Shown here one piece after another: positions 5,114 to 57,698 of a stretch of DNA of 64,000 bases; within the stretch, counting starts at the first letter, position 1; each line of letters starts with the position of its first letter. A model generated the notes under the pieces. That model had not been told where the DNA came from. It was given only the letters and a program-made list of their open reading frames with translations, and ran no database searches. The stretch comes from Eledone cirrhosa (Eukaryota), in contig OZ024741.1 in the NCBI GenBank assembly GCA_964016885.1, forward strand, positions 175,398,001-175,462,000, given 5' to 3'. Both the position numbers and the translations under genes were made by a program.

Positions 5114-5156
5114 ACGGTGCTGACGATAGCTAATAAGCTTGAAACTAGTTCATCGT
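5114..5156 (+). ncRNA. Minimal type I hammerhead ribozyme, family A
   Basis: acggtg CTGACGA t-agc taataa gct-t GAAA CTAG TT catcgt: 6-bp stem I, intact core, palindromic CTAG stem III. Confidence 0.85.
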
Positions 5157-5543
5157 TCCTTTGTCAGTGTTGAACAAAAGGGCAACGATGGTTGCTAAGC
5201 ACTGTACGGCGTAATTCGGGATGTTTGTTTACAAAGAAACCGCATTATAATAAATGTTCGGTGAATCCATACGTACATATATATATGTGTGCATGTATGT
5301 ATATATATACATACTACTGTACGTCTGTATACATATATGTATGCACGTATACATACTTATATTTAAGTAACAGCCGTACTAAGAGTGAGTGAGAAACGAA
5401 ATTTTGTTTCATTTTTTCCATTTATCGTTTTCGGTGCGCCCGGCCGATTAACTCACTCGATATGCAAATTAGGCTGCTCAGCCGTTAATATGCATAAGGA
5501 AAGTATATACTTTCAGACGTTCAATCATCTGGCAGAAAGGTAT

Positions 5544-5585
5544 ATGATGCTGATGATAGCTAATAAGCTTGAACTAGTACATCGT
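5544..5585 (+). ncRNA. Hammerhead ribozyme, family A (one A lost from GAAA)
   Basis: atgatg CTGATGA tagc taataa gctt GAA CTAG TA catcgt; 430 nt downstream of the 5114 copy. Confidence 0.75.
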
Positions 5586-5933
5586 TCCTTTGTCAGTGTT
5601 GAACAAAAGGGCATCGATGGTTGCTAAACACTGCACAGCTTAATTCGGGATGTTTGTTTACAAACAAACCGAGCATTATAATAAATGTTCGGTGAATTCA
5701 TACGTACATATATATATGTGTGCATGTATGTATATATATATACATACTACGTCTGTATTCATATATGTATGTACGTATACATACTTATATATATATATAT
5801 ATATATATATATATATATATATATATATATATATATATATATATATATATATATATATACATATCTATATATCTATATCTATATAAATAAATATATATAT
5901 ATATATATATATATATATATATATATATATATA

Positions 5934-6265
5934 CACGGGTGTGTAAGATTGTGAATAGAAGATTATATTAATAAAAGGAATTCCATCTTTGTCTGATTTA
6001 CTCGTTTTATTTACAATCCTTTAAAATTATAAACATATTATAATGAAATAGTATGGTAGAATATTAAATGTTAAATGTTAATTGAACAATTACTTTCATG
6101 CTTTCGCAATCTTCAGAAGTCTGCGAAAGCATGTAAGTACTTGTTCAATTAACATTTAACATTTAATATTCTACCATACTATTTCATTATAATATGATTA
6201 TAATTTTAAAGGATTGTAAATAAAACGAGTAAATCAGACAAAGTTGGAATTTCCTTTATTAATAT
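5934..6265. mobile_element. HHR element family B, fold-back copy centred on a truncated hammerhead
   Basis: 5965-6108 is inverted at 6122-6265; minus 6083-6116 reads CTGAAGA ttgc gaaa gcat GAAA GTAA TT gttca; same family as 47668-48123. Confidence 0.8.
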
Positions 6266-6406
6266 ATATATATATATATGTGTGGTTCGTTCGTGTTCAT
6301 TAGTCAGTAATTGTACTTGTAGATCAAATCGCACTTGTGTACGTAGGGTTTAGCACTCAAAGTACAATAGTTTCCAGGCTGTGATATAATCAGAGTTTTT
6401 GTATAA

Positions 6407-7048
6407 GAATGAAGAAGAAGGTAGTACTCTGAAATCTTATATAATTTTATTAATTACATCATTGATATTATGCTTATTTCTATGGTATCAATCATGTAAT
6501 TGCTATTTCAACAGATAGCCATTACGTAATTAGTCATACTGCAATATGTTCAGGGCGAGTATTTTCTATGTTGTCACCTCAAGCCCAGAAAATATATGAC
6601 TCTTGTTAAATGACGCTCTATAAAGCATCACTTGGGGCGTGTTCTCACTAATCATTGATTGAATATATCACTCCTATGATCTATTCAGATCATTTCTAGC
6701 TCCTCCTCATGATTAAAGCGTTATTTTATCTACTAAGAGAATCTCAAGATACACAAATATCTATCTATCCATACAACATCATAAATGATGAGAAACGACC
6801 ATAGGAGAGATGAAATGGACATGTCTATAAAGAGGAGTCCTTTAACAAGATTCATATGTTTGCTGTGCTTGAGATGACAACATCAATAATACTCGCCCTG
6901 AACATATCACAGTATGAATAACTACACAATGGCTATCTGACGAGATGGTATCAATTAAATAATTCATGCCATTGAAATGCGCATAACACCAATGACGTGA
7001 TTAACAAAATGATATAAGATTCCAGAATACTGCCTTATTCTTCATTCG
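6407..7048. mobile_element. Old diverged fold-back element (family M) with ~210 bp inverted arms, each carrying a hammerhead remnant
   Basis: 6407-6620 versus 6830-7048 inverted (e.g. atatgttcagggcgagtatt / aatactcgccctgaacatat). Confidence 0.7.
6931..6990 (+). ncRNA. Hammerhead ribozyme, family M (stem I decayed)
   Basis: CTGACGA gatggtat..atgccatt GAAA TGCGCA TA: 8-bp stem II and palindromic stem III. Confidence 0.65.
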
Positions 7049-54689: not shown

Positions 54690-55566
54690 ATATATATATA
54701 TATATATATATATATATATATATATATATATATATATATTCTGTGCTTGTTCTTCAGAAAAAAGTGTTCACATAGTAGCCTTATAACACTGCAAGCTTGT
54801 ACCACATTCATGTGTGTGTCCCCTCTCTATACATTGAATGATATTTCTTTGAAATGTTTTGATTAGGTAGAGGGAGATAATATTTTCGAAGTTCTTGGTC
54901 ATTTTCTATTATTGGACTTGTTAGCATTGACAATGAGGTCTACATTATAGATTTTATCTGCGAACCACTTTTCTATGCTGCATCGAGTTTGCTGCTTGAA
55001 ATTCTCAACAAGGTCGTCACGATACATGTGTCAGTGCTGAAGCGGATTAAGTGGTTTATAACATTTTAAGAGCATGTTAAAAGTAACGCTTGGGCACGTA
55101 GCTTCTTGAGATATAAAAGCTTCTAACAACGTTGCACCACACTTCATTCTTCAGCAAATTCAATTTTGTTTATGCGAAGCTTTGGTTTCACTTTGTATTC
55201 ACAACCCATATTTATATATGAGAACTTTTCAAACAGTGTTCTTTATTGTTGCTGTTGCTGAACATAACGCACGCACACACACACACGGCGGACAAGCGCA
55301 AATATATCTGAAATATATTTAAGGTATCTTTAAAAAATGCATATTTATTTTAACAAGTATGCATTGATTTATTTTCATATGCCCCTTCGTATATTACATA
55401 TAGCTCTTGAGAGGCTGTAATTCGATAATATATATTCAACCCTATCGTTTAATTTAATAAACTTTGAGCCAAATATAATTCTCGTTGCGTTTGAATTATG
55501 TTGTAATAAAATTAAGCCCCTTCAAGTAGAACACTCTATTTAACAATGAACGTTTACGATGAAATA

Positions 55567-56015
55567 TGTAGGAAAACTACTTATGCCTGTTTTTCAAAAA
55601 TATAGCCATCCCTCGGAAAAATCATATTTCAAATTGCGAAGATTTCCTTAGAAAATTAAGTTAGAACGTCCTCTGCTTTGATAAAAATAATAAAGAGAAC
55701 GTTCTAATCGCAAATTTATCTTTACGATTGGTAAAATATCTTCTTAAACCTTTCGAAAATGATCTACAAATTATATTTAAAAAAAAACCCACATTACATT
55801 TAACAAAGTAATTTCAGAAATGCTTAAATCAAAATTTAACTTATTCAGTAAAACTAAAATTTAACTAAAATTTAACTAAAATTTAATTTATGTAGGAAAA
55901 CTACTTATGCCTGTTTTTCAAAAATATAGCCATACCTCGGAAAAATCATATTTGAAATTACTAAGTAATTTCAGAAATGCTTAAATCAAAATTTAACTTA
56001 CTCAGTAAAACTAAA
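55567..56015. repeat. Local direct duplication with internal deletion
   Basis: atgtaggaaaactacttatgcctg.. at ~55566 and ~55890; aagtaatttcagaaatgc.. at ~55806 and ~55963. Confidence 0.75.
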
Positions 56016-56759
56016 GCATTTTAGTTCAATCTGATACACTAAAAAAACATCTCCCAGAAATTACTTATCAAGACCACCACAGCTCCTGTATTCACATCAT
56101 CACCAATACAAAAGAAAGTATACTTAAGTACATTAAACATCAATGCAGAAATTTAGATAGGAACTGTAACTTGTTCCTTGTGTTTACAGATGAATAGAAA
56201 TGTTCCCTTTTCTGTTAATGTGAATGAATGCATGTACTGGTTAGAAGGGATTTTGAAAAATTTTCAAGTGATTAATGCGCAATTCCTTTTGAAACCGTTT
56301 AGAAGTTGTATAATGCTCGAGAAATTATTGATTTGGAAGGACAGGATCCCATATTTTATAAAACTACAAACTGGCTCTAGTAGTAAGCGTTCCGTAGTTG
56401 TACGTTCTCAGAATACATAAGTAGGTTTGCATAAATAACCATAGTTATCTGATTAGATTTTACACTAACGATTTTCGGTATGAGTAGCTTTTCAGAATTT
56501 CATTTTGAAGGTTACATTTGGGCTGTGTGTATTTTGTTTTACACGTATCGTTATGTGTCGATTACATTTGCCTTGGTGTTGAGTATTTTTTATAGATGTC
56601 ATCATATGTTCCGTACGCCCTCCCTCTCTCATGCTCTCATTCCGCCCCTCTCTCTCTGTATATATTTATATATACATATATATATATATATATATATATA
56701 TATATATATATATATATATATATATATATATATATATATATATACATGTATATATATAT

Positions 56760-56958
56760 AGGAACAAGTATGACCCCGACGGCAGAGCTCAAGCCGTTTC
56801 GACGGCTAATTCTGTCCAGAAATAGCCGATAGCCGTCGAAACGGCTTGAGCTCTGCCGTCGGGGCCATACTTGTTCCTATTACCCACTCTACTACCCTAA
56901 GTATTGAGTACTTTGGTGCGTTATGATCCATCTGGTTCCTTACTACAATTCCTTCGTT
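56760..56958. mobile_element. Family D fold-back copy
   Basis: 56760-56808 is inverted at 56830-56880, followed by a ~78 bp tail. Confidence 0.8.
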
Positions 56959-56997
56959 ATATATATATATATATATATATATATATATATATATATA

Positions 56998-57698
56998 TAA
57001 TTATAAGTTTGAAGAACAGTCAGACAAAATATATCCAATTCTTTTCCTCCTTAGTCCGTAGAAATCAACTAGATAAATAATCATTTAAACGGAGCTAAGT
57101 TTAAAATGTAACTTTGAAGAAATAACAGATAAATGTTACAGACTTTCCTCTGTGAGGAACAGTCAGATAAAATGTACCTAGCCTTTCCTCTTAGTCCGTA
57201 GAAATTAACTAGATAAATTAAATGTAGCTAAGACTAAAACGTAAGTTTGAAGAAAAAAATGTAGATAAACTTTACCAAAATTCTTCTAGTCCCGATTATC
57301 GATAGTTTCGCTCGTACTTCGTGGATATGTCCAATCCTGGTATTATCCATGAGGCTTCGAGCTTTTCAAGAGACTCCCTTAGTTAGGACTAAAGTTTCTA
57401 AAGTGATCGCCGCCATTAACGAATTCAAAAGGGGTGAAAAACATCACGTGGCTTGCGTTCAAAGTAGAAGAGTTGTGAAGGGTAGGCCGGGTGGCTAGTA
57501 GGTTCATTGCTAGAAAAAGCAGTAAGGGAGTATAGAATAAATTCATAAGGACATATATGTATATATTTAGACATAATCGCAGATACATATATGAGTGTTG
57601 GCTACCTTCAAAGGTGTGGCTCTATGAAAAAATGAATTAAGCAAATAATTATTAATCAGAGCTATATAAAATTATAAGTTTGAAGAACAGTCAGACAA
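56998..57698 (-). mobile_element. HHR element family P: 671 bp period with ~30 bp terminal direct repeat
   Basis: aattataagtttgaagaacagtcagacaa at both ends; (TA)n flanks; internal diverged ~145 bp repeat. Confidence 0.75.
57288..57375 (-). ncRNA. Hammerhead ribozyme, family P (U3-A8 core, long stem II)
   Basis: Reverse complement agtctc TTGAAAA gctcg..tggata..tatcca..cgagc GAAA CTATCGATAA TC gggact. Confidence 0.8.

Follow-up and report, generated by a model that had tools for sequence, protein, structure and literature searches.

The window analysed here is a 64,000-nucleotide stretch of the genome of the octopus Eledone cirrhosa (G000:C2:175398001-175462000), a genome of 3.0 Gb that is AT-rich and microsatellite-rich. 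It carries a series of type I hammerhead ribozyme motifs (Table 1), whose short stem III inserts are for the most part palindromic and most likely allow two copies to cleave as a double hammerhead. The core CUGANGA ... GAAA ... UH, or its U3-A8 variant (TTGANAA, in families E, H and P), was found with three helices and an open-ended stem I, although several of the window copies are decayed. A first-pass annotation had described palindromes specific to each family between GAAA and UH, and every insert that it listed does lie there (after GAAG in the J copy), downstream of the core and stem II. The series had been taken to end at 57375, whereas the G2 hammerhead and two E copies lie beyond. The insert CCGG given for family H is right at 46496 and 46597, but the CCGG copy at 45482-45516 belongs to a separate family, H2 (71% over 173 nt to the H2 locus L103, no match to the H locus L096). 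In the window only families A and E have a tandem partner on the same strand; a double hammerhead within one transcript is not open to copies whose partner is inverted.

Table 1. Hammerhead motifs and associated coding pieces in the window
Feature	Position	Strand	Remark
Family A hammerhead, insert CTAG	5120..5150	+	first of 430-bp head-to-tail pair, retrozyme-like
Family A, second tandem copy	5550..5579	+	GAAA minus one A
Family A, inverted copy	4742..4764	-	stem II short of 8 nt (deletion)
Family B copy, decayed insert GTAA	6088..6116	-	adjoins inverted partial copy
Family M hammerhead, insert TGCGCA	6937..6985	+	stem I decayed; inverted partner 6424-6561
Family N hammerhead, insert CGATCG	31977..32092	-	stem II domain 97 nt
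Family E, hammerheads 37880-37957 and 38471-38548	37880..38548	+	head to tail, 591 bp apart; U3-A8 core, insert CTACGTAG
Family G hammerhead, insert GAAC	41561..41595	-	within 3' pseudo-LTR (long terminal repeat) of Penelope-like element
Penelope-like coding pieces: reverse transcriptase, then C-terminal GIY-YIG endonuclease	41799..43475	-	5'-truncated, stop-interrupted
Family H2 hammerhead-like copy, U3-A8 core, insert CCGG	45482..45516	+	unrelated to family H
Family G inverted pair, insert GAAC	46027..46225		46027 (-) 5'-truncated; 46191-46225 (+) intact
Family H inverted pair, U3-A8 core, insert CCGG	46496-46525 (-) and 46597-46626 (+)		
Family F inverted pair	46892-46926 (-) and 47088-47122 (+)		minus-strand copy with mutated core; insert CAGACTATG here, CAGACTG in other copies
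Family B hammerhead, insert GTAC	47948..47976	+	
Family J hammerhead, insert TATATA	53569..53617	+	GAAG for GAAA here; Penelope-like family
Family P hammerhead, U3-A8 core	57294..57369	-	insert decayed from usual CTATCGATAG
Family E, second tandem pair 59266-59343 and 59858-59935	59266..59935	+	first copy: deletion in stem I 3' arm
Family G2 hammerhead, insert GATT	60953..60986	+	pseudo-LTR of 4.15-kb Penelope-like element; other subfamily GAAC

These motifs are far more frequent than expected by chance, and type I hammerheads are present. We scanned with our own type I descriptor, which does not require a palindrome and chooses the register of UH by stems I and II. A strict scan of the window gave 8 matches at a score of at least 8, against 0.4 per shuffle. 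Applied to 590 kb, made up of 59 arbitrarily placed 10-kb stretches, the descriptor gave 61 matches against 3 per shuffled run; perfect palindromes made up 20 of the 59 inserts there, and none of 6 in the shuffles. By this sample the window is typical of the genome; rare families are undersampled, since the sample ended at 590 kb. Eleven of the 61 sample matches come from one AT-rich satellite (L134) and are false, i.e. they are not ribozymes. Seven patterns searched through the whole genome returned 119,134 matches, and their reversed controls together 34 (matches/control: 40,422/31 for the CTAG pattern, which includes both families A and A2; 17,851/1; 3,158/0; 13,104/0; 149/2; 9,744/0; 34,706/0). 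The repeat families behind the nine palindromes of the first-pass annotation thus mostly have thousands of copies each, and with more than 100,000 motif matches the genome holds a large, apparently uncatalogued set of ribozymes of a known type. Counts of insert forms per pattern, given below, were made by eye on the first 100 matches listed. Our early scanners overlooked U3-A8 cores, long stems II and decayed copies, and cluster 18 was excluded because its two members differ in register. The Rfam models gave no match in the window at gathering score, and no hammerhead family was among the 90 weak matches in 4500-7200, around family A, and this tells no more than that these variants escape the curated models. 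The weak matches to miRNA models are TA-repeat hairpins.

The elements that carry the hammerheads are of different kinds. The G hammerhead stands downstream of reverse transcriptase (RT) and GIY-YIG pieces on the same strand (41561-43475), whose Pfam matches (RVT_1, E 0.0017; GIY-YIG, E 0.0016) are below the curated cut-offs while their motifs are recognisable. G2 marks a 4.15-kb head-to-tail unit (L179) with an open reading frame (ORF) of RT and GIY-YIG type; its identity to the G pieces is 62-70% over the RT, the thumb and the first piece of the endonuclease, and 48% over the last piece. A J locus (L181) has Penelope-type thumb and GIY-YIG pieces. Judged by these coding pieces, G, G2 and J belong to Penelope-like elements. 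The single N locus examined (L180) showed no Penelope-like ORF. H, F, M and B occur as inverted pairs or solo copies, a layout that fits truncated Penelope-like insertions as described in PMC4209133 and PMC8557442. In the G2 element of L179, with a tandem period of 4,147 bp, a 559-aa asparagine-rich N-terminal frame accompanies the 675-aa RT-endonuclease frame; the two (L179:2665-4344 and 690-2717 (-)) overlap in different reading frames.

Three families, A (430 bp), A2 (466 bp) and E (591 bp), consist of non-coding units repeated head to tail, each unit bearing a single type I hammerhead; elsewhere in the genome they form long arrays. In their sequence organisation they match the short repeats of non-LTR retrozymes and are retrozyme-like. 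In one array (G000:C1:5738326-5752444) an A2 variant is repeated head to tail in units of 466 bp, at least 31 times, with one inverted copy at the end. For the E unit at 59095-60010, the sole matching record in two of four public contig sets (X1 and X5) is one self-circling contig of 620-621 nt (591-nt unit). A circle would give such a record, as would a collapsed tandem; as the type of run is unrecorded, it is not readable as circular RNA. No RNA data set is listed as containing the E unit. The four contig sets contained no listed variant within the E palindrome, and RNA ends are not visible in such data.

To describe the inserts we retained 29 family or subfamily representatives. Twenty-one carry perfect palindromes, three wobble palindromes and five a central mismatch, and the Watson-Crick outer pair is kept in 28 of the 29, i.e. 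they have the palindromic 15.2-16.2 pair and loop 3 of the Penelope pseudo-LTR hammerheads. With the N flanks fixed, the first 100 of 3,158 matches gave CAATTG 69 times, CGATCG 16 times, CGGCCG 9 times and single-base decays 6 times; the half-way forms CAATCG and CGATTG were absent from these 100. Passive decay of CpG as the source of the switches was rejected, since these forms are absent and CGGCCG involves no CpG change. In a tree of 17 N copies, built without the insert and without two copies truncated before the core, CGATCG occurs in two groups that are 82-84% alike; the CGGCCG copies lie beside group 1 (90-96% alike) and the CAATTG copies arise from group 2. Thus subfamilies 82-84% alike share CGATCG, whereas subfamilies 90-96% alike differ.

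Similar switches were found in other families. P inserts were CTATCGATAG in 52 of 100 matches, CTGTCGACAG in 4 and one-sided forms in 5; the P insert in the window, which the first-pass annotation had read as a palindrome, is indeed that of a palindromic hammerhead, but this copy is decayed and the family usually carries the perfect palindrome CTATCGATAG. Among matches with TTTTAT/ATAAAA as stem I, the insert was TGCGCA (59), the wobble form TATGTA (21), TATATA (13) or another (7). All these compensatory switches are transitions. The G2 insert, which had been given as GATT, has this form, a G-U wobble palindrome, in 53 of 100 matches, but in 42 it is GAAC, the insert of G. G inserts vary (GAAC, GGAC, GAGC), always with symmetric tandem purine mismatches, so that G is a weak case of the palindrome rule and no exception to it. 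G, F and I had been set apart as exceptions; this needs amending for G and F, which retain 15.2-16.2 as the outer pair and, around mismatches at the centre, have two-fold symmetry. M is an old family, its copies being 76-90% alike: a tight M pattern matched the window copy only, a similarity search reveals decayed members, and their scatter around TGCGCA is explained by CpG loss. In family A it is stem I that varies compensatorily, while CTAG is constant in 33 of 35 copies, most of these loci having been fetched with the CTAG pattern. The claim that palindromicity is kept while the sequence changes is borne out by the switches in N, P and the T4/T5 group, and this pattern of substitution indicates that palindromicity is under selection. 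Sister subfamilies that swap both sides of the insert form a natural covariation series, which is good sequence evidence that the double-hammerhead pairing is selected in Penelope-like elements.

Some inserts are of odd length (CCACTGG, CCTCTGG and CAGACTG, in clusters c13, c8 and F; L073:9864, L074:3269, L039). As monomers they would close a 3-nt loop with a stem of 3 bp, and as dimers they would pair symmetrically around a mismatch at the centre. A stem II domain of great length (97-116 nt) occurs in N at 31977-32092 and also in the unrelated c14/c17 (L084, L086, L036), both with CGATCG.

We then considered how such inserts would fold. In a monomer, stem III has 1 pair for 4-nt inserts, 2 for 6-nt inserts, 3 for E and 4 for P. 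Constrained folding of natural tandems of E, A and A2, comparing a double hammerhead with two monomers, favoured the double hammerhead in all three cases, by 12.1, 16.1 and 16.7 kcal/mol respectively. The helices of the predicted fold are nested. One joins the 5' arm of copy 1 to the 3' arm of copy 2, the next joins insert to insert, and the last joins the 3' arm of copy 1 to the 5' arm of copy 2. In the predicted dimer stem I is thus swapped along with stem III, a feature absent from the model of the first-pass annotation, and discrimination between copies would come from both helices. The part of that model taken from established work, that hammerheads with a short stem III act as double hammerheads, holds: on the motifs and these folds, cleavage as double hammerheads is most likely. 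Dependence on the dimer is most likely for the class with 4-nt inserts. In the axolotl, a comparable motif reaches 6% cleavage as a monomer and far more as a dimer, while invertebrate motifs with two pairs are efficient on their own (PMC7229834, PMC7761336).

The palindromes do not follow family boundaries, as far as the sequences of the families tell. CTAG is common to A and A2, which are 65-74% alike in part of the unit and differ in stems I and II; CCGG is common to H and the unrelated H2/H3 pair, with H and H2 both in the window; TATATA is common to J and T4, TGCGCA to M and T5, CGATCG to N and c14/c17, and GAAC to G and G2. Five of the nine palindromes described as family-specific are thus shared with other families, while GTAC, CTACGTAG, CTATCGATAG and GATT were seen in no other family of the sample. 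Among 23 collapsed families, pairs with identical palindromes number 6 against a null mean of 4.3. No deficit of cross-compatible pairs was found, the chance of so few or fewer being at least 0.30 in all 18 null comparisons, which have low power (23-29 families) and in which relatives are not independent. Pairs compatible in both helices are in excess over the null, as expected of relatives.

Cross-pairing was assessed on the 812 ordered non-cognate pairs of the 29 representatives (four of them added by hand), by stacking sums on clamped duplexes. The median non-cognate penalty was 9.1 kcal/mol for stem III and 7.4 kcal/mol for stem I, and 37 of the 812 pairs passed a minimal junction test. 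Among the pairs predicted to cross-pair are T4 and c12, which differ in stem II but have stem I in common and carry TATATA and TATGTA, at 0 to -1 kcal/mol, and H and c20, at less than 1 kcal/mol summed.

The explanation that best accounts for these results, with a probability of about 80% in our estimate, is a double hammerhead in which palindromicity is selected, the letters drift and no code is selected. Stem III would be unstable in a single copy (1-2 bp for inserts of 4-6 nt), and two head-to-tail copies in one transcript would fold as a double hammerhead, in which the palindromes pair and the stem I arms are exchanged. Each core would then cut the partner copy, as expected from published work on such motifs, and unit-length RNA would be released. 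Selection would keep the insert self-complementary while its letters would matter little; they would drift by compensatory transitions via G-U intermediates, as in stems I and II. The palindromes would in this way diverge among families by drift, and recur by descent or by parallel change. Cleavage would remain mostly within a family because of the proximity of tandem copies and the divergence of both exchanged helices.

Some observations nevertheless count against this explanation. Dependence on the dimer may fail for M, N, J, E and P: inserts of at least 6 nt can form monomer stems of 2-4 bp, and efficient monomer cleavage is reported for retrozyme hammerheads of invertebrates whose helix III has 2 bp (PMC7229834, PMC7761336). 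The sharing of palindromes is inflated by A2, which came in through a CTAG-targeted search; the H2 representative too was reached by a palindrome-targeted one, but H2 also occurs in the window. At the minimal junction 775 of the 812 ordered pairs are incompatible, although almost any two random palindromes are so, and this incompatibility needs no selection. Lastly, apart from the insert, where 2 of 6 positions differ, the CGGCCG copies of N are distinguished from their CGATCG sister by only 7 of 322 columns (about 2%), and the two have the same stem I.

This last contrast could mean that palindrome switches are sometimes positively selected, uncoupling a new master copy (e.g. the CGGCCG form of N) from the transcripts of relatives or of non-autonomous parasites that share its stem I, which we consider unlikely. 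The address would be stem III together with stem I, acting between sister subfamilies and not between distant families; in this form, too, the proposal is an improbable one. The N clade shows two switches from CGATCG with the core-adjacent arms of stem I kept, the stem III heterodimer penalty predicted between its forms is 4.5-14.5 kcal/mol, and the same pattern is seen in P and in the T4/T5 group. But the N switch taken as one compensatory event has, by simple arithmetic, a chance of about 14%, in groups that were picked by their palindrome, and, the switches being transitions, an unbroken run of 2-4 stem III pairs survives at the junction in five of the six ordered N pairs. Whole subfamilies have stayed with TATGTA, a wobble form that can pair with TATATA, and three J subfamilies retain TATATA (94 of the first 100 matches listed). 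Family A varies stem I under a constant CTAG, and cis cleavage between tandem neighbours leaves little reason to exclude strangers. If the switches were selected in this way they would amount to RNA-level recognition of self and non-self among retroelements, which the data do not favour.

A code with a separate palindrome for every family, selected to confine cleavage to tandem transcripts of one family, is very improbable. There are 22 different inserts coexisting among the 29 representatives, four of the nine palindromes lack a second family in the sample, and the median stem III penalty for a non-cognate pair is 9.1 kcal/mol. The sharing of the five others, which for CCGG occurs within the window itself, refutes the strict form of one palindrome per family, and sharing is not depleted against the null models. 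The proposal of the first-pass annotation that distinct palindromes restrict cleavage to their own family is not supported on these grounds and also because stem I is exchanged and T4/c12, like H/c20, are predicted to cross-pair at little or no cost. As for the longer palindromes acting as simple monomer hairpins, with the dimer incidental, E and P are able to form monomer stems of 3-4 bp and the retrozymes of corals and mussels are reported to be active as monomers (PMC7229834, PMC7761336), but we give this little credit, as the would-be loop changes on both sides (CGATCG to CGGCCG), which a monomer loop does not need, 4-nt inserts have a single monomer pair and folding favours the dimer even for E.

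The palindromic double hammerhead in Penelope-like elements is published biology (PMC4209133, PMC3088659 and PMC6765202; related work in PMC6466107, PMC13282606 and bioRxiv 10.64898/2026.03.07.710320), of which the families described here are new members. Cervera and De la Pena (2014, PMC4209133) described motifs in Penelope pseudo-LTRs, with many families per genome and compensatory changes, and a U3-A8 variant; the 15.2-16.2 pair and loop 3 are palindromic, and activity as dimers was low. The present hammerheads resemble theirs in being of type I, with the palindromic pair and loop, many families and the U3-A8 variant. They also resemble them in occurring as solo copies and inverted pairs 100-700 bp apart; there, dimer cleavage was proposed and was weak in vitro. 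They differ in that inserts here are nearly all of 4-10 nt, where theirs are absent, and in that several stems II reach 50-115 nt and copies tens of thousands per family group. Palindromic stem and loop III were noted in several ribozymes by Perreault et al. (2011, PMC3088659, Fig. S8 legend); in contrast to their comparison across species, the compensatory switches here lie between sister subfamilies of one genome. In the literature searched we found neither a proposal of a family-specific palindrome code nor a catalogue of these families, though Lunse et al. (2017) may bear on both.

A, A2 and E, as AT-rich head-to-tail repeats, resemble non-LTR retrozymes including the newt and axolotl satellite 2 (PMC7229834; bioRxiv 10.64898/2026.07.22.740005). 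A and A2 are like HHR_Amex1 in their 6-7 bp stem I, one-pair helix III and palindromic tetraloop cap, and A is like HHR_Amex2 in the U-U pair at the base of stem II. Their units of 430-590 bp exceed those of the first-described retrozymes (150-450 bp), but fall within the 51-972 bp of bioRxiv 10.64898/2026.07.22.740005. The role of the ribozyme in Penelope-like elements in vivo is described as unclear (PMC8557442, PMC7761336).

The best analogy for a dimerisation code is the dimer initiation site of retroviruses, in which two RNAs dimerise through a short palindrome and heterodimers can be at a disadvantage when their palindromes differ. Contact between the separate RNAs is made mainly by the palindrome in that case, whereas here pairing would be mostly in cis, stem I is exchanged in the predicted dimer and palindromes are shared among families. 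The N trio, with one stem I and three palindromes, and the T4/c12 pair, from different families with compatible helices, are ready-made constructs for measuring selectivity.

Other features of the window concern the surroundings of the hammerheads. At 45863-47140 elements of G, H and F are stacked, with H2 just upstream and B downstream, over about 2.5 kb; they are inverted pairs or solo copies and often adjoin TA microsatellites. An abundant hammerhead-like repeat lies at 37402-37446 (-), 47510-47560 (+) and 50796-50880 (+), mostly with CAGAAGA in place of the CUGANGA core. It is probably the family I of the first-pass annotation, and it has been amplified with what is probably an inactive core. 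A broken LINE at 13488-16607 (-) retains exonuclease/endonuclease, RT and zf-RVT pieces. Further non-LTR pieces at 19332-21496 (+) and 23002-23649 (+) comprise an RT (RVT_1, E 2e-21), then a zinc knuckle and an endonuclease-looking tail, presumably a restriction-like endonuclease of R2/R4 type.

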